Shown here: positions 32,766-44,616 of the stretch, one piece after another
How positions within the stretch are numbered: the first letter of the stretch is position 1
Layout: each line of letters starts with the position of its first letter
Assembly: GCA_034520945.1 (NCBI GenBank)
Contig: JAXHNB010000006.1
Coordinates: 416,001 to 480,000, forward strand
Length of the DNA: 64,000 bases
Source: Trueperaceae bacterium
GTDB taxonomy: Bacteria; Deinococcota; Deinococci; Deinococcales; Trueperaceae
Direction of reading: 5' to 3'
Position numbers and translations under genes: made by a program
The notes under the pieces: model-generated
Database searches by the model: none
What the model was told of the DNA's origin: nothing
The model's input: the letters and a program-made list of their open reading frames with translations, nothing else

Positions 32766-33464
32766 TCAGGAAGAGGCGTCCATGCTGCCGTCGTGGGCGT
32801 CGACACGGAGGCCCTCCAGGAAGTGCGTGACGATGCGTCCGGCGTCGTCCAGTGCGCGCGCCGCGTCCTCGGCGTGCGCGACCTCCATGCATGCTTCGTG
32901 AAGGGCGCCCGACAACATCGTCGCCAGCAACGGAAGCGGCAATCGACGTATCAACCCGCGATTCATCGCGCGGCGCAGGTCCGCACGGAGCAGCAACGTG
33001 CCGTGCTCCTGCTCGACGCGATGCCACTGCTCCCAGCTCAAGACGGATCTCGGGTCCAGCAGGGCGATGCGTTGCACACGCGGGTCGGTTTGCAGCTCGA
33101 TGAACAGTCGGCAACGTGCGATCAACTCCTGCCAAACCTCGTCGTCGGTCTGCTGGTGCAGCAGCTTGATGCCCTTCTGCCCCAACGTTCGCGCCTGCGA
33201 TCCGGTGAAGGCGTCGTGGGAGGTGTGCACGATGAACGCGGCCCGTCCGAGGTTGCGCTTGACCCGCTCGTAGACCCGCAAGAAGATCTCGTCCTTGCCG
33301 CCGAAGTGATGGTAGAAGGCGCCCTTCGTCACCCCGGCGGTGCGGACGATCGCCTGTAGGGACGTCCCCGCGTAGCCGAATTCCCCGAACAATCTCTGCG
33401 CAGCCGTCAGGAGTGCTTCGCGGGTGGCCTCGCCTTGCTCCACGCGCTTCGATTTGACCGTCAC
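32766..33464 (-). CDS. TetR family regulator
   Basis: TREALLTAAQRLF...GVTKGAFYHHF.GK. Confidence 0.9.
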   Translation of the reverse strand: MTVKSKRVEQGEATREALLTAAQRLFGEFGYAGTSLQAIVRTAGVTKGAFYHHFGGKDEIFLRVYERVKRNLGRAAFIVHTSHDAFTGSQARTLGQKGIKLLHQQTDDEVWQELIARCRLFIELQTDPRVQRIALLDPRSVLSWEQWHRVEQEHGTLLLRADLRRAMNRGLIRRLPLPLLATMLSGALHEACMEVAHAEDAARALDDAGRIVTHFLEGLRVDAHDGSMDASS

Positions 33465-33503
33465 TGCGTCAACGTCTCCATCAGGACGAACGGTACCTGA
33501 TCC

Positions 33504-33549
33504 TTGACAGAGCATACCAGCGGTACGTAACATACATACCAGCGGTATG
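33504..33549 (+). promoter_or_regulatory. Promoter with tandem TetR-type operators
   Basis: TTGACA 33504, TAACAT 33528; CATACCAGCGGTA(C/T)G at 33513 and 33535. Confidence 0.75.
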
Positions 33550-33573
33550 GACCGTTGGAAGGGAGCGTCGAGC

Positions 33574-33840
33574 ATGCCCAAGTACGTCATCGAACGTGAG
33601 GTCGAAGGGGTCGGGCGCCTGTCCCCTGCCGAGCTCCGGCAGGCCGCGAGGGAGTCGGACACGGTCATCCGGGAACTCGGCATTCAATGGATCACCAGCT
33701 ATGTCACCGACGACAAGCTCTACTGCGTCTACGTGGCGGAGAGCGAGGAGGTGATCCGTGAACACGCCCGGTGCGTCGACGTCCCCGCGAACCGTGTGTC
33801 CAGAGTGGTGACGAACATCGATGCGGTGACGGCCGAGTAG
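33574..33840 (+). CDS. DUF4242 family small protein
   Basis: MPKYVIERE...IQWITSYVTDDKLYCVYVA...IREHA...PANRV. Confidence 0.82.
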   Translation: MPKYVIEREVEGVGRLSPAELRQAARESDTVIRELGIQWITSYVTDDKLYCVYVAESEEVIREHARCVDVPANRVSRVVTNIDAVTAE

Positions 33841-34036
33841 CCGAAGGACGACGCAGGGCGCTTCGCTCCGTTCTCGGAGGCCGACGTACGGGCGATCTTC
33901 GGTGCACGGTGCACGGCGGGCACCATCGAACCGTCTCGGGTCGCTACGGCGCACGAATGTCGTTTCGAGCCGGCGGCGCACCCGCGCGCGGACGCGCCCC
34001 GCCGCCTCCCGTCCATCGCGACGTACAATGGTCGGA

Positions 34037-36526
34037 ATGCAGAGTTCCACGGGGCGGGGGTACTACGCTGGAAAAACGATCCTTCTGACCGGCGCGACGG
34101 GGCTGGTGGGGAAGGCGCTGATCGAAGCCATCCTGCGAAAGCTGCCGGAGGTCGGGCGTGTCTACGTCCTGATTCGCGCACGAACCGACGCGGCGGGGCG
34201 CACCGTCTCCGTCGCGCGGCGGTTTCGCGAGGAGGTCCTGGCCTCCTCGGCCTTCGACGAGCTCCGCGCCCAGCACGGCGAGGGGTTCGAAGCGTTCGTG
34301 CACGACAAGGTCGAAGCCGTCGGCGGCGAGTTGTCGCGCGAACGGCTCGGCCTGGCCCCCGAGCTCTACCGGCGTTTGCAGGAGGAGGTCGACGTCGTCA
34401 TCGGCAACGGTGCGTTGGCCGTGTTCGACGCGCCGCTGGACCAGGCCGTCCACACCAACGCGCTGGGGCCGCAGCGGATCCTGGACTTCGCCCGCGGCGC
34501 GGCCAAGCGGCCGTTCGTGGCGCACGTGTCGACCTGCTACGTCAGCAACGTGGCGGGACCGGTGTTCGAGGCGCCTCTGCCGCCCGACTGGACGCCGGCC
34601 GGTCCGGACGCCGCCGACCCCTACGACGTCGACCGGGAGCTCGAACGGCTGCTGGCGCACGTCGGCCACGTTCGTAGCGGCGACCCCAGTGAAACCACGT
34701 CGCCGTGGTGGCAGGACCTCCTGACGCGCATCGGCGGGGACGGCCGCCCCGCGGGAAACGGCAGTGCCGGCCGGGCGGTCGACCCTGGCGAGCGGGCGGT
34801 GACGCAGCGGCTGGTGAACGACGGCCTTCGCTGGGCCCGCCGGCGCGGTTGGCGCGACACCTACACCTTCACCAAGGCGATGGGCGAACAGCTGTTCGCC
34901 CGCCACGGCGGCGACGTGCCCGGCCTGATCCTGCGTCCCTCGGTGATCGAGAGTGCGCTGGCGACGCCGACGCCCGGCTGGATCGACGGCTACCGGATGC
35001 TGGACCCGTTGATCGTCGGCTTCGCCCGCCGGCAGTTGACCGAGTTTCCGGGCAACCCCGAAGCCGTGTTGGACGTCGTGCCGGTGGACGTGGTGGTGAA
35101 CGCGCTGCTGATGGCCATCCCCTACACGCATGGGGGCGAGGGGCCCGACGTGTACCAGGTCGCGTCCGGCACCGAGAACCCGCTGCTGGTCAAGGAGTTC
35201 CGCGACTACGTCCGCGAGCACTACCAACGCGCGCCGCTCCGCCGCGCACGCGCGGGCCAGGACGACGACCTTCCCGAGTTGGCGTTCCCCGCGGTGGGTC
35301 GCTTCCTGCGCGGCCTCGAGTACGGCTACCTGCTTCCGGTGCGAGCGCTGGAGGCCGCGTACCGCCCGTTGGCGTTCACGAACTGGGGCCGCAAGCGGCG
35401 CGCCACCCTGAGCGCGCGACGGGCCCGGCTGACGTGGCTCCGCGACATGGCGGAGATCTACGGTCCCTACGGGGAGAGCCGCGCGCGCTTCCTGACGTAC
35501 AACGTGCGCCGGGCGTGGCGGGCGTTGCCCGCGGCGGAGCGCGCGGCGTTCCCGTTCGACGTGCGGGCGTTGGACTGGAAGCGCTACGTGCAGGAGGTGC
35601 ACCTGCCGGGCGTGGAGCGCTACCTGTTGGGGTTGCGGGGACGCCGTGCCGCGCCGGTCGCGCTGAGCGACGACGACGCGGCGGCCGGGGGGTGCCCCGC
35701 ATCGGTCGCAGCCGACGCCGGAACGCACGGAGAGGAGTTGGAGCCCGAGGTGCCCCGCGGCGCGCGCTCGAACTGGCGGCGGGCCGAACAGGTCCTCACC
35801 CTCACCCGCGCGACCTCCGCGGCGGAGGCGACCACCTGGACCACGCCGACGTATAAGCGGCTCATCCGCTGGGCCAGCATTCACGCCATCCACCTGGTCG
35901 CGCGCCTGCGCCTGGAGCTGGCGTGGGACGGCCGCGAGCACGTGCCCGAACGCGGCCCCTTCATCGTGGTGTCCAACCACACCAGCCACGTCGACACCGG
36001 CGTGCTGTTGGCCGCACTGGGGCCGCACGCGTCGCACACCTACCCGACCGCCGCGGCGGACTACTGGTTCAGCCGGCCTGCCGTGGCTTGGCTGCTGCAC
36101 GCCACGCTGGGCGGCATTCCCTTCGACCGGCACCGCCCCAACGTGGCACGCGCCCTGGCGCTTCCCGCGCAGGTGCTTCGCAACGGCCACTCGCTGATCT
36201 TCTACCCCGAAGGGACGCGCAGCCCGGATGGAACACTCCAGCCCTTCCGCAGCACCGTCGGCCTGCTGGCGCTCGCGTCGGCCGCACCGATCGTGCCCGC
36301 CTACGTTACCGGGGCCGCGCAGGCGCTCCCCAAAGGACACGCGGTGATCGCCCATCATCCCGTCCACGTCCGGTTCGGCCCGCCCACCCCGATCGAGGCG
36401 TACCTGGCGCGGCTGGACTACGAGAGCGTCTCCAGCGTGTCCCGGCGCTTGGCGCAGGACACGCACGCCGCCGTGGCGCGGCTGGCGCCCCCAGGCGCCC
36501 TACCGGCCGGGGAGGCACGGCCATGA
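34037..36526 (+). CDS. Fatty acyl-CoA reductase fused to a PlsC/LPLAT-type acyltransferase
   Basis: TGATGLVG, HVSTCYV, YTFTKAMGE, RPSVIES, DVVPVD, sterile-like FDVRALDW; C-terminal NHTSHVD and FYPEGTRS; leaderless (TACAAT at 34024). Confidence 0.9.
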   Translation: MQSSTGRGYYAGKTILLTGATGLVGKALIEAILRKLPEVGRVYVLIRARTDAAGRTVSVARRFREEVLASSAFDELRAQHGEGFEAFVHDKVEAVGGELSRERLGLAPELYRRLQEEVDVVIGNGALAVFDAPLDQAVHTNALGPQRILDFARGAAKRPFVAHVSTCYVSNVAGPVFEAPLPPDWTPAGPDAADPYDVDRELERLLAHVGHVRSGDPSETTSPWWQDLLTRIGGDGRPAGNGSAGRAVDPGERAVTQRLVNDGLRWARRRGWRDTYTFTKAMGEQLFARHGGDVPGLILRPSVIESALATPTPGWIDGYRMLDPLIVGFARRQLTEFPGNPEAVLDVVPVDVVVNALLMAIPYTHGGEGPDVYQVASGTENPLLVKEFRDYVREHYQRAPLRRARAGQDDDLPELAFPAVGRFLRGLEYGYLLPVRALEAAYRPLAFTNWGRKRRATLSARRARLTWLRDMAEIYGPYGESRARFLTYNVRRAWRALPAAERAAFPFDVRALDWKRYVQEVHLPGVERYLLGLRGRRAAPVALSDDDAAAGGCPASVAADAGTHGEELEPEVPRGARSNWRRAEQVLTLTRATSAAEATTWTTPTYKRLIRWASIHAIHLVARLRLELAWDGREHVPERGPFIVVSNHTSHVDTGVLLAALGPHASHTYPTAAADYWFSRPAVAWLLHATLGGIPFDRHRPNVARALALPAQVLRNGHSLIFYPEGTRSPDGTLQPFRSTVGLLALASAAPIVPAYVTGAAQALPKGHAVIAHHPVHVRFGPPTPIEAYLARLDYESVSSVSRRLAQDTHAAVARLAPPGALPAGEARP

Positions 36527-38391
36527 CGAGACACGACGGGCAGCACCGCGCACGCGGCCGGCGGCGTGCCGCGGCGGAACGCCCCTACGACCCTGCGCCC
36601 GGCCAGCGCGACCCGCACCTGTGGGGCTACCTGGACACGCGCTTCGAGTTCGTCGACGCCCGCACCGTGCGCCTGACCGGCGACCGCTACCCGCTGGCGG
36701 GCATGCCGCTGCCGCACTTCATGCCGTTCGTGGAGGAGCTGCTGGGCGTCCCGGTCGGGCCGGACCACCTTCAGGAGCCCGTCCCGCCGCCCGCGTTGCC
36801 GGCGCCGGTTCGGCACGAGGCCTTCCTGGCGGACCTCCGTGACGCCCTGCCCGAAGACCGGCTGGACGATGGCGAGGAGGCGCGGTTGGTGCACAGCCAC
36901 GGCCAGCTCAGCGTCGAGGAGATCTACCGTCTGCTGGGCGGCAACATTCCGGAGCGGATCGTCGACCTGGTGGTGCACCCCCGCGACGAGGACGAGGTGC
37001 AGACCCTGGTGCGCCTGGCCCATGAACACGGCGTGGTGCTCATCCCCTACGGCGGCGGCACCAACGTCTCGGGCGCGCTGACCTGCCCGCCGCACGAGAC
37101 GCGCATGATCGTGTCGGTGGACATGCGTCGCATGGACCGCATCCTGGAGATCGACCGGGCCAACGGCTGGGCCGTCGTCGAGGCCGGCATCACCGGCAAG
37201 GAACTCGAGACCCGCCTGGAGGCGGAAGGACTGACGACTGGACACGTGCCCGACAGCATCGAACTGTCCACGCTGGGCGGGTGGATCGCCACCCACGCCA
37301 GCGGCATGAAGAGGAACCGCTACGGCAACATCGAGGAGGTCGTCCTGGACGCCGTCCTCGTCACCCCCCGCGGGGTGGTCCGCGCCGTCCCGGTCGTGCC
37401 GCGCAGCGCCACCGGCATCCAGCCGCAGCGGCTGGCGTTCGGGAGCGAGGGCGGCCTCGGCATCGTCACCCGCGCCGTGCTGCAGGTGTGGCCGCTGCCC
37501 CCCGTGCGCCGGTACGCCTCGTTCGTATTCCCGGACTTCCAGGCCGGCGTGCGCTACCTGCGGGCCGTGCAGGCCGCCGGCGTGCGTCCGGCCAGCATCC
37601 GCCTGACCAACAACACCGAGTTCCGCCTGGGCCAGGCGCTGGGCCCCGCGCGTCACGGCACCAGCGCGTGGGTGTCGAAGGCGAAGCGGTGGTACGTCAC
37701 GCGCGTGAAGGGGTTCGACCCGCAGCGCATGGTGGCCTGCACGGTCGTGATGGAGGGCACCGCGGCCGAAGTCCGACAGCAGACGCGGGGCCTGTTCGGG
37801 CTGCTGAAGGATCATGGCGGCCTCTCGGGCGGCGCCGAGAACGGCAGGCGCGGCTACGCCGTCACGTTCGCGATCGCGTACATTCGCGACTTCCTGAACA
37901 AGCTGGGCATTCTGGGCGAAACGTTCGAGACATCGGCCCCGTGGAGCCGCATCCACGACATCACCAGCAGCGTCCAAGCCGAGCTGCACCGCCTCTGCGC
38001 CGAACGCGGCGTGCCCGGCCGGCCCTACCTGTCGTACCGGGTCTCACAGAGCTACCGGACCGGCGTGTGCATCTACTTCACGATGGGGTTCTGCGCGCGC
38101 GGCCTGAACGAACCCGAGGCCACCTTCCAGGAGATCGAGCACCGCCTGCGCGAGGTCGTCCTCGAGCAAGGCGGGTCGCTGTCCCACCACCACGGCGTCG
38201 GCAAGGTCCGCCAGGACTTCGTCCCCCGCGTCCACTCCGGCGCATCGATCCGCGCCGCCCAAGGACTGAAGCGTTCCCTGGACCCCAACGACGTGTTCGG
38301 CGCCGCCAACCACCTCTTCGGTGCGCACCTTGCCGAGACCGACGCGGTGGCACCCCAGCGCGAGGAGGGCCGCGCGGAGGGGACGCCTTGA
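36523..38391 (+). CDS. Alkyl-dihydroxyacetonephosphate synthase (AGPS)-like FAD enzyme
   Basis: PYGGGTNV, GHVPDSIELSTLGGWIATHASGMK.N.YGNIE, GSEGGLG, IAYIRD, ETFETSAPW, CIYF, SLSHHHGVGK. Confidence 0.9.
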   Translation: MTRHDGQHRARGRRRAAAERPYDPAPGQRDPHLWGYLDTRFEFVDARTVRLTGDRYPLAGMPLPHFMPFVEELLGVPVGPDHLQEPVPPPALPAPVRHEAFLADLRDALPEDRLDDGEEARLVHSHGQLSVEEIYRLLGGNIPERIVDLVVHPRDEDEVQTLVRLAHEHGVVLIPYGGGTNVSGALTCPPHETRMIVSVDMRRMDRILEIDRANGWAVVEAGITGKELETRLEAEGLTTGHVPDSIELSTLGGWIATHASGMKRNRYGNIEEVVLDAVLVTPRGVVRAVPVVPRSATGIQPQRLAFGSEGGLGIVTRAVLQVWPLPPVRRYASFVFPDFQAGVRYLRAVQAAGVRPASIRLTNNTEFRLGQALGPARHGTSAWVSKAKRWYVTRVKGFDPQRMVACTVVMEGTAAEVRQQTRGLFGLLKDHGGLSGGAENGRRGYAVTFAIAYIRDFLNKLGILGETFETSAPWSRIHDITSSVQAELHRLCAERGVPGRPYLSYRVSQSYRTGVCIYFTMGFCARGLNEPEATFQEIEHRLREVVLEQGGSLSHHHGVGKVRQDFVPRVHSGASIRAAQGLKRSLDPNDVFGAANHLFGAHLAETDAVAPQREEGRAEGTP

Positions 38392-39221
38392 CGACGCGCC
38401 CGGCGACCCAGGCGTTCGCCGGCCAGGTCGTGATCGTGACGGGCGCATCCTCGGGCCTCGGTGCGGCCCTCGCTCGGGCGTTGGCGGCCGCCGGCGCGCA
38501 CGTCGCCCTGTTCGCCCGCTCCCAGGCCGAACTGGCGCGCGTGGCGGACGACTGCCGCCAGGCCGGCGGCGAGGCGCTGGTGGTGCCCGGCGACGTGACC
38601 TCACCGGACGCGTGCGCCGCGCTGGTGCAGCGCACCACCGAACGGTTCGGCCGCCTGGACGCGGCCGTGGCGTGCGCCGGCCTCGGCATGTGGGCCCGCT
38701 TCGACGAACTGGACGATCCCTCGGTTCTGCGACGGCTGATGGACGTGAACTACCACGGCGTCGCCAACCTGTTCCTGCCCGCCTTGCCGCACCTCACCGC
38801 GAGCGGCGGCATGCTGGTGGCGATCTCCTCGGTGCAGGGCGTCGTCGGCGTCCCCCATCACAGCGGCTACGCCGCGTCGAAGCACGCGGTGCAGGGCCTG
38901 TGCGACTCGCTCCGGATGGAGCTGCGCGGCAGCGGCGTCGGCGTCCTGACGGTGATGGCGCACTGGGTGCGCGGCACCGACCTGCGCGCCCGCGCCCTCG
39001 GTCCGGACGGCGCACCCCGAGGCAGCGCCGCCCCGCGTCACGGCGGCGGCGCCACCGATGTGGACACCATGACGCGCGCCGTGCTGAACGCCATCCACAG
39101 GCGCAAGCGGCGGGTGTTCGTGCCCGGGTGGCTGCGCTACCTGGCGTTGCTGTCGGAGGTCGCGCCCGGGTTGGCGGACCGGGCGATCGCGGGGCGGGTG
39201 GCGCGGGAGGGGAAGGAGTGA
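38388..39221 (+). CDS. Short-chain dehydrogenase/reductase (DHRS7B-like)
   Basis: TGASSGLG, SSVQG, YAASKHA...DSLRME; TTGA overlap with the AGPS stop. Confidence 0.88.
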   Translation: MTTRPATQAFAGQVVIVTGASSGLGAALARALAAAGAHVALFARSQAELARVADDCRQAGGEALVVPGDVTSPDACAALVQRTTERFGRLDAAVACAGLGMWARFDELDDPSVLRRLMDVNYHGVANLFLPALPHLTASGGMLVAISSVQGVVGVPHHSGYAASKHAVQGLCDSLRMELRGSGVGVLTVMAHWVRGTDLRARALGPDGAPRGSAAPRHGGGATDVDTMTRAVLNAIHRRKRRVFVPGWLRYLALLSEVAPGLADRAIAGRVAREGKE

Positions 39222-39225
39222 AGCC

Positions 39226-39623
39226 ATGACGCAGAACGTCATGACCTACAGGGGATACGCAGCCAGCGTCGCGTATGACGACGGCGATGGGGTGTTCACA
39301 GGGAAGGTGCTGGACATCAGTGACACGCTGTTGTTCTCCGGGGAATCCGTGGATGAGCTGCGCAGCAGTTTCCGTAGCCTCATCGACGACTACCTCGCGT
39401 ACTGCGAACGAACCGGCGCACCTGCGGACCGCCCGTTCTCGGGTCGCGTGCAGCTTCGCCTTTCACCTCAGCATTGCATCGCGACGCGGTCGTCGCTGCT
39501 GCCAGCAGGGATCAGAGCCTCAACGCCTTTCTCGTCGATGCCGTGAGCTCGTTCCTGACCTCGCTTGACGACGAAGCGCGCGAAGGCGGTACCGTCATAG
39601 ATTTCCAACGACTGGCGTCGTAG
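39226..39623 (+). CDS. hicB: HicB family antitoxin, frameshift near 39469
   Basis: MTYRGY...DDYL..C...RPFSG..LRLSP, continuing ALHRDAVVAAASRDQSLNAFL in another frame; no hicA. Confidence 0.8.
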
Positions 39624-39670
39624 TACGCGACCGCTGCACAGTGGGACGCAAACCGATGAGGCCGAGCGCT

Positions 39671-39895
39671 TCACCCCAAGCGTGCTCGTACGGCGCGAAA
39701 CACATCCCGCGCCGCGGTGCCTGAATCACCGCTTTGGTCCCATGCCGCATCCCGGCGCGCGGCCTCTTCGGCCCACAGAAGCGCGTTCTCTTCTTCGGAT
39801 AGTTCCTCGAGGCTGGCGAGAAGCTTCTGCGCCAAACGAGCCCGCTGACGCAAATCCAACTTCAGGATTTCCGCCTCCAACTCGTCGACGCCCAT
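39671..39895 (-). CDS. Putative addiction module antitoxin (TIGR02574-like), orphan
   Basis: L..RQRARLAQKLLASL...WAEEAARR. Confidence 0.75.
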   Translation of the reverse strand: MGVDELEAEILKLDLRQRARLAQKLLASLEELSEEENALLWAEEAARRDAAWDQSGDSGTAARDVFRAVRARLG

Positions 39896-40176
39896 GCTGG
39901 AACGGTACCGCGTATCGACGTGCTGGAGCGTGCCAGAGCCCGCAACGCTACGAGAAGGGGAAAGGGGAGGACGGCAGCACGGCCGAATCGAGCAGCAGCC
40001 GAGCTACGAGAAGCGGCAGCAAGAGTACGGCCGGATCCTGGGCTTCGCAAGGGGCAACGTCGTACAGGAGGTCGCGAACGCCGAAACGCAAGGCGCGGAG
40101 GGGATTGACAACGGTAAGAGAATCTTGACGCACCCCTGGGGAGGCGTGTTGTCACTTGGCAGGTTGTCTCAGGGCC

Positions 40177-40271
40177 ATGACAATCGTCCACCTAGGGCTA
40201 GAATACGAACAGATCCCCCCTGATTCTTCGGAATCAGGCCGCGGCGCCCCTTCATTGGGGCGCCTGCTTTT
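40177..40271 (+). promoter_or_regulatory. Promoter and two-hairpin leader/terminator upstream of the NYN gene
   Basis: ATGACA-N16-TAGAAT; CCTGATTC-TTCG-GAATCAGG; GGCGCCCC-N6-GGGGCGCC-TGCTTTT. Confidence 0.6.
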
Positions 40272-40290
40272 GTGGCACGATCGGTTGGTG

Positions 40291-40913
40291 ATGCGAACAC
40301 GCGTGTACGTGGACGGATTCAACCTCTACTACGGGGCACTTCGTGGAACGCCATACAAGTGGCTCGACTTGTCGACCTTGCACGGGCGCCTACTTCCCAA
40401 GAATCGGATCGACCCTATCTACTACTGCACGGCCCGTGTGACAGGCCGCGCTCATGATCCAGATCAGCCGGTGCGCCAGGACGTCTACCTGCGTGCACTG
40501 CAAACGATCCCAAACCTCACGGTCGTCGAGGGTACGTTTCTCTCGCAAGAGAAGAAGATGCCTCTCGTGTCGCCTTGGTCAGGAGGACAACGGTTCGCAA
40601 CGGTCATCAAGACGGAGGAGAAGGGTCTGACGTGAACCTCGCCAGTCTGATGCTCCGCGACGGGTTCTTGGGCCTCTATGACGTTGCCGTACTCGTGTCG
40701 AATGACTCTGACCTCGCATTGCCCCTCAAGATCGTGCGTAACGAGATCGGCAAGACCGTTGGCATTCTCAATCCCCACAAGCGCGCGAGTAAGGAATTGA
40801 ATCTGCACCGCGACTTCTACAAGCCGATCCGGAAGGGCGTCCTTGCCGCAAGTCAGTTCCCGCACGAATTCCGAGAAGGAAACGGCCTTATCGCGAAACC
40901 AACCGAGTGGTAG
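40291..40913 (+). CDS. NYN/LabA (PIN-like) RNase, frameshift in a G run near 40625
   Basis: VYVDGFNLYY, EEKG/SDVNLA, VSNDSDL. Confidence 0.85.
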
Positions 40914-41063
40914 AGGTAGTCATGTTGCGAGGACGGTGCCGCTTCTTCAGCCACCCAAGGCGCCCGAGCCCGGTCCACCTCGCCGGGGGAGGTCCAGTGG
41001 GAACACTTCGCCGACACGCTGCAACGGCACGCCCCGAACGCGCTCCTCGAGCACGCCCTCGAA

Positions 41064-41883: not shown

Positions 41884-42195
41884 CCCTTGGTCCTCTACTT
41901 CGTCATCATGTTCACCGTCAGCTTCTTCATGGGCAAAGCGTTCGGTGCGGACTACCCACGCTCCGCGACGCTCGCGTTCACGGCGTCTGGTAACAACTTC
42001 GAGCTTGCGCTCGCGGTCGCGATCTCGGTCTTCGGTCTCAGCTCAGGCGTCGCCTTTGCAGCCGTCATCGGGCCGCTGGTCGAGGTGCCCGTGCTGATCT
42101 CGCTCGTGTGGGTGGCGCTCTACTTCCGCAAGCGCTTCTTCGCTGAGGCACATGCTTCGGCCGCCGCCGTCGAGGGTAGCCGGGAACGTCAGTGA
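41884..42195 (+). pseudogene. acr3: Acr3 arsenite exporter, C-terminal fragment
   Basis: [15 protein letters not shown]...[10 protein letters not shown]. Confidence 0.85.
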
Positions 42196-42343
42196 TCGAC
42201 GGGAGAGCGAACCCAAGCGAAGGGACCCACCCATCCTCCGCGACCGCGATCTCGCCGCAACGCTCGAGCGCGCCCAGCTCGACAGTGCATACGTCGGAGC
42301 GCTCGCGTCCTCGATCTTCACGAGGCCGATCGGGCTCCGGTGT

Positions 42344-42670
42344 TCAAGACTCCGGATCCGAGAGCCACGCAAGAGCGTCGGCGGCCGTGTCCTGCACAGT
42401 CGCCATCTTCATGAGCCGGGCTACCAGGATTGCTTCGATGATCTCCGCGTCGCTGACGCCGGCCTTCCGAGCCTGCTTCGTCCACATGAGCGTGCAGGTC
42501 GACGACTGCAGGGCGGCGGCGACGCCGATGCCGATGAGCAGCTTCTGCGTCAGCGGCAACGCCTGCAACGCCGGGTTCTCGAGGGTGGCGGCGCGGTGGT
42601 CCATGTAGGTACGTGCGCCTTCGGGGGATGCGGTGCGAAGGATGTCCATTGGGGCGGCGGATGAGTTCAT
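42344..42670 (-). CDS. Carboxymuconolactone decarboxylase/AhpD-like protein
   Basis: KLLIGIGVAAALQS.TC...ARKAGVSDAEIIEA; GAGGAG RBS. Confidence 0.75.
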   Translation of the reverse strand: MNSSAAPMDILRTASPEGARTYMDHRAATLENPALQALPLTQKLLIGIGVAAALQSSTCTLMWTKQARKAGVSDAEIIEAILVARLMKMATVQDTAADALAWLSDPES

Positions 42671-42912
42671 TGTGTCTCCTCTTCGAAATGGGGTGGAGAG
42701 GTGCGCGGAGAACGCCGTCACGAAGGGAGTGAGCAACGACTCGCAACACCGCGGCACACCTTGCGACGTGATCGTCGGCACGGCTTAATCGCGGCGCACC
42801 TAAGGGCACCACCGCCCACGATGTCGTGAAACTGGCAGGTCACCAAGGGCCATTCGTCCGTGGCCCGCCGCGGCTCCGACGAAGACCGTGCGACCTGCCC
42901 GACCCGTGAAGC

Positions 42913-43010
42913 TTCGACCTGGTGCTGACCGTGTGCGACGCGGCCGCCGAGGCCTGCCCCGCCTACCCTGCGCGCACCACGCGCCTGCACGTGCCGTTCG
43001 ATCGCTGGAC
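42913..43010 (+). pseudogene. arsC: LMWP-type arsenate reductase fragment
   Basis: FDLVLTVCDAAAEACPAYP...LHVPFD. Confidence 0.7.
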
Positions 43011-43078
43011 GATCGATCGCCGGCGCGTCGCGCGACTCAGTCGAACGCCGCCGCCGCCGGCACGCGCGCCGGCGTGTT

Positions 43079-43826
43079 TCACGGCATCCCCTCCTCGAAC
43101 AGGGCACGCTCGTCCTCGGGCAGGCGAGCACGCGCAAGGTCCCGAATCCCGTTCACGCCGATGAAGAACTCGCGCATCATCACGACCAGCAGGTACCGGC
43201 CGCTCTCGGTCAGCTCGAGCGCCTCGGCGTCGTCTCTAGAGAACGCACACGAGCCTTTCAGGAACAGGTACTCCGCCCACAGCGCACGCTCCACCGGCGC
43301 ACCGGTGCGCTCCGCGAAGGCGCGCTTGTCCAACCGCAAACCGAACAGGTCCATCATCAGCCGGTACCGCCAACGATCTGCTCGACTGAGCGGCATGTGA
43401 GCATCGACGCTGAGCCGTCCCTCGCCGATCGCTTCGGAATACGCTCGCAGGCTGAACGGATTGGCGTAGAGCTCGTCGCGTAGATAACTGAACGAACCGC
43501 TACCGATCCCCACGTACTGGTCGTGGTCGACAATGTACTCGTCGATCATCGTCGCGGCCTTACGTGAGAACGCCCACGCCGAGGTGGGCTCGAAGGTGTC
43601 GGACAACGCCCGGGAGAGCTCGCGGTATTGCCGCTCCTCGCGCGCGTAGTCGACCTTCCCGAGGGCACGCTCGAGCGGCTTCTCGACCGAGGGCGACACC
43701 ATCAGCGGGTAGTAGGTCACCTGATCCGCGCCGGTCGCTTTCAAGGTCTCGATGTCGCGCTTTAGCACAGCGTCCGTCAGGGACGGAAGGTTGAAGATCA
43801 TGTCGACGTTGAGCGTCGTGAGGCGG
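43079..43826 (-). pseudogene. C-terminal half of a HemN-like radical SAM protein (MenK/MqnK-like)
   Basis: NVDMIFNLP, QVTYYPLM, IDEYIVD..YVGIGSGSFSY; no CxxxCxxC region. Confidence 0.75.
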
Positions 43827-43919
43827 CCGGCAGCGCGACCTTCGCCTTGAACGCGGGAGCATGATTCCGACGGTTCTTCTTCACTTCAATCCCCATTCCG
43901 GAAGCCGAACGCTTCCTAC

Positions 43920-44526: not shown

Positions 44527-44616
44527 TGGCGGAGGGAGAGGGATTCGAACCCTCGATACGGAAAACCGTATACACGCTTTCCAGGCGTGCTCCTTCAACC
44601 ACTCGGACACCCCTCC
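44527..44616 (-). tRNA. tRNA-Ser(GGA)
   Basis: GGAGGGGTGTCCGAGTGG...CTGGAAA, long variable arm, GGTTCGAATCC...GCCA, 90 nt. Confidence 0.97.

Follow-up and report, generated by a model that had tools for sequence, protein, structure and literature searches.

Does a member of the Deinococcota encode, within a single operon, the dihydroxyacetone phosphate (DHAP)-dependent type of ether glycerolipid synthesis used by animals and protists? The question is raised by a three-gene locus in a Trueperaceae bacterium, a haloalkaliphilic relative of Deinococcus (assembly GCA_034520945.1; 3.47 Mb, GC ~69%), which we analysed within a stretch of 64,000 nucleotides (nt) of contig JAXHNB010000006.1 (positions 416,001 to 480,000; hereafter the window). 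Three co-directional genes lie at 34037-39221 of the window, in the order fatty acyl-CoA reductase (FAR)-acyltransferase fusion (FARAT; gene 1), homologue of alkyl-DHAP synthase (AGPS, EC 2.5.1.26; gene 2), and classical short-chain dehydrogenase/reductase (SDR; gene 3). Based on the encoded proteins, we consider it probable that the operon specifies a DHAP/AGPS-type route to ether glycerolipids via 1-O-alkyl-glycerol-3-phosphate. The coupling of the genes by short overlaps, as claimed in the original prediction, was read directly for both junctions: ATGA joins the stop of gene 1 to the start of gene 2 (36523-36526), and TTGA joins the stop of gene 2 to the start of gene 3 (38388-38391). Shine-Dalgarno (SD)-like purine runs precede gene 2 (GGGGAGG) and gene 3 (GGAGGGG), and the three genes are presumably co-transcribed. 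All three frames can be taken as coding because their GC content at third codon positions is 0.91-0.94.

By Pfam, gene 2 consists of FAD_binding_4 and FAD-oxidase_C domains. When compared with all solved structures, its top match was guinea-pig AGPS (4bby; E 1.6e-139, 469 bits), with residues 33-596 aligned to chain residues 95-656, including part of the protein N-terminal to the FAD domain. Dictyostelium AGPS (2uuu) matched at E 7.5e-86 (292 bits), and the best match outside AGPS in the vanillyl-alcohol oxidase (VAO) family was 3pm9 (E 9e-25, 90 bits), which covered the FAD domain only. The mutant chains 4bca and 4bc7 depart from wild type 4bby exactly at the columns of gene 2 Y518 and R360, the counterparts of guinea-pig Y578 and R419. 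Further AGPS motifs of gene 2 are STLGGWIATHASGMK (residues 249-263), YGNIE, IAYIRD, FETSAPW, CIYF (516-519) and HHHGVGK (555-561). The HHH of the last motif (H555-H557) aligns with chain residues 615-617 of 4bby and is unchanged in 13/13 aligned, diverse bacterial homologues; we take this loop of AGPS to lie near the flavin. In Dictyostelium AGPS, R352, R447 and Y508 are important for catalysis (PMC3509576), and they correspond to gene 2 R360, R455 and Y518, assuming a three-residue offset in chain numbering. Elsewhere in the genome there is one VAO-type match to gene 2, a weak one (E 2e-9). The proposed comparison of gene 2 with AGPS on the one hand and GlcD/D-lactate dehydrogenase on the other thus places it with AGPS, by full-length match and by catalytic residues. 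Gene 2 is, by these measures, a true AGPS relative, for which the exchange activity is predicted.

With regard to gene 1, an uninterrupted frame (34037-36526) places both functions in one polypeptide, with a FAR domain (approximately residues 1-560), an Ala/Arg-rich linker, and an LPLAT/PlsC-type acyltransferase domain (approximately residues 620-800). Three Pfam domains were detected: NAD_binding_4 (PF07993; residues 17-356, 9e-57), Sterile (PF03015; 469-531, 4e-09) and Acyltransferase (PF01553; 631-757, 3.5e-20). The FAR part carries TGATG (18-22), GATGLVG (19-25; GxxGxxG) and YTFTK (276-280; YxxxK), and its match among solved structures is the fatty acyl-CoA reductase 7eoz (E 5e-76); the acyltransferase part carries NHTSHVD (647-653; HX4D) and PEGTRS (724-729). 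Among the matches listed from a collection of 5.8 billion proteins, 120/120 homologues (39-77% identity) had the same three domains, and those with names came from Opitutales, Aquisalimonas and Dehalococcoidia. A genome-wide search for the Acyltransferase domain returned four matches including gene 1, with at least one separate PlsC-like gene elsewhere, and the acyltransferase of gene 1 is therefore an extra one. On domain content, we identify gene 1 as a bacterial FARAT.

Gene 1 also has much longer relatives. An exhaustive search of representatives yielded 691 cluster representatives at E <= 1e-30, where many proteins of 1,400-1,700 residues matched gene 1 over at least two stretches. Eight of nine scanned long relatives combined NAD_binding_4, AMP-binding and Acyltransferase domains (seven of the eight with PP-binding as well), and the ninth was without the acyltransferase. 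This is the architecture of myxobacterial ElbD (FAR, acyl-CoA synthetase, acyl carrier protein, acyltransferase), whose FAR and acyltransferase ends are homologous to gene 1. Gene 1 differs in that Pfam found neither the central AMP-binding module nor a phosphopantetheine carrier domain in it, which sets it apart from ElbD-type proteins; in domain terms it is the two ends of ElbD minus the middle. Gene 1 is also coupled to AGPS, whereas the ElbD route is thought to be independent of AGPS. The original prediction that myxobacterial ElbD uses other enzymes was too strong, given that, among long proteins, those of the ElbD type are the closest kin of gene 1.

Gene 3 has the classical SDR motif set (TGASSGLG, residues 18-25; SSVQG, 147-151; YAASKHA, 161-167) and matches adh_short (PF00106) at 6e-48. 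In NCBIfam it exceeds the cut-off of PRK06181 (271.9 vs 215 bits), a model named only 'SDR family oxidoreductase'. Its look-alikes in the Atlas were bacterial SDR clusters throughout. All the motifs quoted earlier for the three genes were found on direct reading.

Taken together, the translationally coupled trio would provide a route to ether glycerolipids that depends on DHAP (the 'aerobic', animal/protist type). In gene 1, the N-terminal FAR would reduce a fatty acyl thioester to the fatty alcohol with NADPH, and the C-terminal HX4D acyltransferase would yield 1-acyl-DHAP. The flavoenzyme encoded by gene 2 would then swap the acyl group for the alcohol, giving 1-O-alkyl-DHAP, and reduction of the C2 keto group by the SDR would lead to 1-O-alkyl-sn-glycerol-3-phosphate, which ordinary cellular PlsC-type and head-group enzymes could process further. 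We infer every substrate and product in this scheme, and likewise the acyltransferase's specificity for DHAP and the step given to the SDR, which are the two weakest links. The anticipated four-activity route (FAR, acyltransferase, AGPS, ketoreductase) is well supported in silico, about as well as sequence data permit, by the AGPS grouping of gene 2 and from the co-conservation described below. A search for the plasmalogen family PEDS1/CarF (PF10520) was uninformative, with no match in this genome nor in 14/14 control genomes.

To survey co-conservation, each species was represented by one genome and scanned for an AGPS pattern, which identified at least 558 AGPS-encoding stretches; the best 80 served as loci and represent Latescibacterota, Gemmatimonadota, Trueperaceae, Gammaproteobacteria, Phycisphaeraceae, Planctomycetota and Hydrogenedentota. 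Downstream sequence of at least 900 nt was available for 72 loci (close kin included), and in 66 of these a same-strand SDR lies 3' of AGPS, at a distance of 200 nt or less in 51. The genes 5' of AGPS are more varied. In the 68 loci whose upstream sequence reaches at least 4 kb, a fused FARAT directly precedes AGPS in 8 (and in 3 shorter loci), a stand-alone FAR followed by a gap of ~2 kb in 28, an acyltransferase alone in 2, and neither FAR nor acyltransferase in 30. Eleven AGPS-bearing genomes of the window's family were fetched (G036 not among them), and eight of these have FARAT-AGPS, two FAR-649aa-AGPS-SDR and one acyltransferase-AGPS-SDR. The SDR was seen in seven of the eight FARAT-AGPS loci, with the eighth contig stopping before it, and hence 3' of AGPS in 10/11 family loci. 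The survey that was suggested for the trio therefore finds AGPS and SDR linked across phyla, and the fused FARAT-AGPS-SDR cassette recurring in Trueperaceae, Gammaproteobacteria, Phycisphaeraceae and Hydrogenedentota.

The ~2-kb gap after the stand-alone FAR is filled by a 649-residue protein (L065:5016-6965, P0123) with homologues in 29/80 loci (e.g., L018, L057). It always stands between the stand-alone FAR and AGPS and has an HX4D-like motif in its C-terminal half; no Pfam or NCBIfam match was found for it, and we regard it as a candidate DHAP acyltransferase of divergent type. In Latescibacterota and Gemmatimonadota loci with no FAR or acyltransferase nearby, a hydrophobic, His-rich membrane protein of 350 residues (L011:5842-6894; homologues in 20/80 loci) lies directly 5' of AGPS-SDR. 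It had no match in Pfam, and its histidine clusters presumably resemble those of membrane desaturases or hydroxylases. In another Trueperaceae genome (L079:4582-6876), the place of the window's FARAT before AGPS-SDR is taken by an HMG-CoA-reductase-family gene (PF00368, 4e-118) together with a separate acyltransferase; the former may supply fatty alcohol as a non-orthologous replacement. It is about an even question whether the PRK06181-type SDR is the bacterial acyl/alkyl-DHAP reductase (EC 1.1.1.101) and AGPS+SDR a mobile core with interchangeable feeder modules (fused FARAT; FAR plus the 649-residue HX4D protein; HMG-CoA-reductase-like protein plus acyltransferase; the His-rich 350-residue membrane protein). 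Three of these four module types are present within Trueperaceae alone. As a separate observation, one Trueperaceae cassette has, after its SDR, a gene of the fatty-acid desaturase family (L065:10086-11129; PF00487, 5e-40).

Several points weigh against the proposed ether-lipid route. The acyltransferase domain of gene 1 is of the generic PlsC/LPLAT type, with NCBIfam matches that are all far below their cut-offs, and because the sequence places it no more closely than this, a specificity for DHAP can only be guessed from the architecture. The 80 loci include many close relatives (mostly Latescibacterota), which makes the counts look more independent than they are, and the SDR was not nearby in 6 of the 72 (the FARAT-type L007 as well as L041, L058, L070, L074 and L080). 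In Myxococcus xanthus, disruption of the AGPS homologue MXAN_1676 does reduce ether lipids, a precedent in favour of the route, but the reduction is only slight and the AGPS route is only a minor contributor there (PMC9131029). Our literature search found no assay of a bacterial FARAT or of an operon-linked SDR, and no report of ether lipids or AGPS in Truepera/Deinococcota or lipid analysis of cassette-bearing Trueperaceae. The chemotaxonomy passage in the genome paper of T. radiovictrix, a species that may or may not carry the cassette, names glycolipids, phospholipids and long-chain diols, with no ethers among them (PMC3072082).

These points leave room for other assignments of the individual steps. 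The gene 1 acyltransferase could act at sn-2, as an AGPAT-like enzyme on 1-O-alkyl-glycerol-3-phosphate, as proposed for ElbD, with acyl-DHAP supplied by another enzyme. This would agree with its best solved match, the 1-acyl-sn-glycerol-3-phosphate acyltransferase PlsC (5kym, E 4e-17), with its NCBIfam matches to AGP_acyltrn and Aas-type domains, and with the annotation of several homologues as '1-acyl-sn-glycerol-3-phosphate acyltransferase'; the acyltransferase of ElbD-type proteins, the long relatives discussed above, has likewise been called AGPAT-like (PMC9131029). However, AGPS requires acyl-DHAP and the operon holds no other candidate for a DHAP acyltransferase, protist FAR-AT fusions are reported with DHAP acyltransferase activity (PMC13012113), and an HX4D-type protein directly precedes AGPS in other cassette types too. 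We therefore consider an sn-2 role quite unlikely. It is also unlikely, if slightly less so, that the SDR serves another redox step (e.g., aldehyde to alcohol beside the FAR, or an unrelated substrate) while a housekeeping enzyme performs the keto reduction. The SDR family is very large and lacks a specific functional model, and the best solved matches of gene 3 are unrelated SDRs and reductases. Yet the SDR stays beside AGPS whichever of the four feeders is present, which fits a step after AGPS, and the alkyl-DHAP reductases of eukaryotes are also SDRs (PMC13256971).

A more radical departure would make gene 2 a GlcD/D-lactate-dehydrogenase-type enzyme in a cluster for fatty alcohols or wax esters. 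Its best NCBIfam match is indeed GlcD, at 149 bits vs a cut-off of 568 in a collection that has no AGPS model, and public annotations of its homologues mostly read 'FAD-binding oxidoreductase'. We find this reading highly improbable, since the AGPS alignment spans the full length of gene 2, covers the N-terminal part and lies ~380 bits above any dehydrogenase. A GlcD/D-lactate dehydrogenase identity for gene 2 itself was rejected on this full-length match and on its conserved catalytic Tyr and Arg residues and HHH loop.

The DHAP/AGPS-type operon is not without precedent in print, and the expectation that it was undescribed did not hold. A 2022 review describes a three-gene operon in M. xanthus, MXAN_1676-1675-1674, in which MXAN_1676 is ~42% identical to human AGPS, MXAN_1675 has a FAR1-like domain at its N-terminus and a GNPAT-like one at its C-terminus, and MXAN_1674 belongs to the NAD-dependent epimerase/dehydratase family; according to this review, the similarity had already been remarked in 2006 (PMC9131029). 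A 2026 PNAS paper draws the operon in its Fig. 1, calls the fusion FARAT, and traces the FARAT of eukaryotes back to Myxococcota, with an all-bacterial clade of 361 sequences collapsed in its FARAT tree (PMC13012113). Its Dataset S4 contains five Trueperaceae FAR entries, three of which are FAR+Acyltransferase fusions of 781-831 residues, and its Dataset S5 contains six Trueperaceae AGPS; the terms 'Deinococc' and 'Actinobacteri' are absent from the main text. Agps homologues have also been counted across many phyla of Black Sea metagenome-assembled genomes (e.g., Latescibacterota, 67/92; PMC11868695) and remarked by Sahonero-Canavesi et al. (PMC13159169). The window operon thus adds a member from the Deinococcota to an operon type that is known from myxobacteria and already listed in public datasets for Trueperaceae.

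The three genes of both operons are an AGPS homologue, an adjoining FAR-acyltransferase fusion and a gene of the NAD(P)-dependent reductase type (PMC9131029, PMC13012113). They differ in the phylum of the host and in gene order, which is AGPS-FARAT-NAD in M. xanthus and FARAT-AGPS-SDR in the window. Gene 3 is a classical adh_short SDR with a weak match to the Pfam Epimerase family (8.6e-06), and may or may not be of the same subfamily as MXAN_1674. For the eukaryotic peroxisomal set (FAR1, GNPAT, AGPS, DHRS7B/PexRAP), the same chemistry is predicted as for the window, with AGPS conserved over its full length, but here the genes form a bacterial operon without an organelle. The fused FAR-AT architecture of gene 1 recurs in protist FARAT (Tetrahymena, Dictyostelium, Discoba); the Tetrahymena protein is reported to be experimentally bifunctional (PMC13012113) and is, at 1,140 residues, ~300 residues longer than gene 1. 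By comparison, the anaerobic ester-to-ether conversion by PlsA/PlsR and Ger has in common with the window only its product class, bacterial ether glycerolipids, while the enzyme families and logic are unrelated (PMC13159169). No match to PlsA/PlsR- or Ger-type families was found for the three window proteins in Pfam or NCBIfam.

AGPS is unevenly distributed around the window's host. At E <= 1e-100 it was detected in 13/128 genomes of the window's family, 2/10 other genomes of the genus and 25/364 genomes of the phylum; by family-level group, with the window's genome excluded, the counts were 12/127, 12/19, 0/125, 0/23, 0/68 and 0/1. A quick maximum-likelihood tree of AGPS (LG+G4, 87 rows; 4 rows omitted for stops or truncation), which has several long branches and comes without an approximately unbiased (AU) test, recovered the FARAT-linked AGPS as a single clade of 14 rows with an SH-aLRT support of 100. 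This clade holds nine Trueperaceae-type rows, three Gammaproteobacteria, one Phycisphaeraceae and one Hydrogenedentota, and the remaining Trueperaceae AGPS are placed outside it. The host had been predicted to be Deinococcota-like, and both the closest named homologues and the neighbours in the tree are indeed Trueperaceae. Cassette type follows the AGPS tree and not that of the organisms, in keeping with transfer of entire cassettes, and the cassette seems to pass from one lineage to another as a single unit. Composition was rejected as a sign of transfer, since the GC content of the operon (72.6%) is not distinctive against the window mean (69.4 ± 2.7%). A 19-kb DNA query returned scattered matches only and no contiguous empty insertion site within the genus; the within-genus DNA comparison therefore shows neither gain nor loss.

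A second family of the same order has AGPS-like genes (L097-L101) that are ~45% identical to gene 2, some with in-frame stops, and they served only as outgroup. No FAR, acyltransferase or SDR was found near them in the 5 genomes fetched out of 12, nor any lipid genes in one neighbourhood examined. It is possible that they are not ether-lipid enzymes.

The window operon can be viewed as a Deinococcota (Trueperaceae) example of the DHAP/AGPS ether-lipid pathway, discussion of which has so far centred on myxobacteria and on its role as the source of the eukaryotic one. It leaves the general picture of ether-lipid synthesis unchanged. Two aspects reach slightly beyond the printed record. The AGPS-SDR pairing conserved across phyla nominates a candidate bacterial alkyl-DHAP reductase, and one AGPS clade of fused cassettes is common to unrelated haloalkaliphilic lineages while other Trueperaceae cassettes are built differently, which points to whole-cassette transfer. 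Mildly new, in our view, are the pairing of AGPS with the SDR at nearly all loci, the modularity of the feeder genes and the haloalkaliphile cassette clade. For lipid geochemistry, the operon suggests aerobic producers of monoalkyl glycerol ethers. If the assignment of the SDR and the mobile AGPS+SDR core is correct, aerobic haloalkaliphilic Trueperaceae and their soda-lake neighbours would be unrecognised sources of 1-O-alkylglycerol lipids in sediments.

The coordinates of the operon and of its flanking features are collected in Table 1. The operon had been given a start at 34024, which is the first base of the hexamer TACAAT and not of gene 1. An additional in-frame ATG exists at 34028, but the ATG at 34037 agrees with the called N-termini of 16 homologues and is the most likely start. 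A leaderless -10 element had also been proposed here. TACAAT is present, and three relatives from the Trueperaceae (L005, L008, L071; L004 is ambiguous) have -10-like hexamers 6-10 nt ahead of the start, which makes a leaderless transcript from TACAAT plausible. The consensus scan found no full -35/-10 sigma-70 site at the start of gene 1. The sole full sigma-70-like site in 33.5-39.7 kb is TTGACA-18-TAACAT (33504-33533), just before the SCO4226-like gene.

Table 1. Features of the operon and its surroundings (window positions; ORF, open reading frame).
Feature	Position	Strand	Location or evidence
TetR-family gene	32766-33683	opposite	upstream flank
SCO4226-like small gene	33547-33840		upstream of operon
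Candidate -10 hexamer TACAAT	34024..34029	+	ends 7 nt before gene 1 ATG; promoter role inferred only
Gene 1, FAR-acyltransferase fusion (FARAT), 829 aa	34037..36526	+	Pfam, solved-structure matches, motifs
Gene 2, alkyl-DHAP synthase (AGPS) homologue, 622 aa	36523..38391	+	Pfam, solved-structure alignment
Gene 3, classical SDR, 277 aa, TTG start; candidate acyl/alkyl-DHAP reductase	38388..39221	+	Pfam, NCBIfam, linkage
HicB-like ORF	39226-39546		starts 5 nt past gene 3 stop, behind SD-like GGAAGGAG; weak match, E 0.001
ORF with weak NYN-domain match	40575-40913
tRNA-Ser (GGA)	44527-44616	-	5.3 kb downstream of operon

The flanking genes are not conserved with the cassette. In 90 related loci, no TetR, SCO4226-like or HicB-like gene stood beside it, save for a TetR fragment of 35% identity in L053, and we therefore do not count these genes as part of the system. 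Beyond the HicB-like ORF, GC content drops to ~59-62% (39500-41000); this ORF and the low-GC stretch may be the remnant of a mobile or toxin-antitoxin element. The tRNA-Ser was the only RNA element detected in 33-46 kb. Further downstream, ORFs within 41900-43840 had no Pfam match and the region no Rfam match. Two segments of this region (~42345-42895 and 43037-43835) have counterparts of 79-92% identity in most of the genomes from the genus, one of which has two copies of them.

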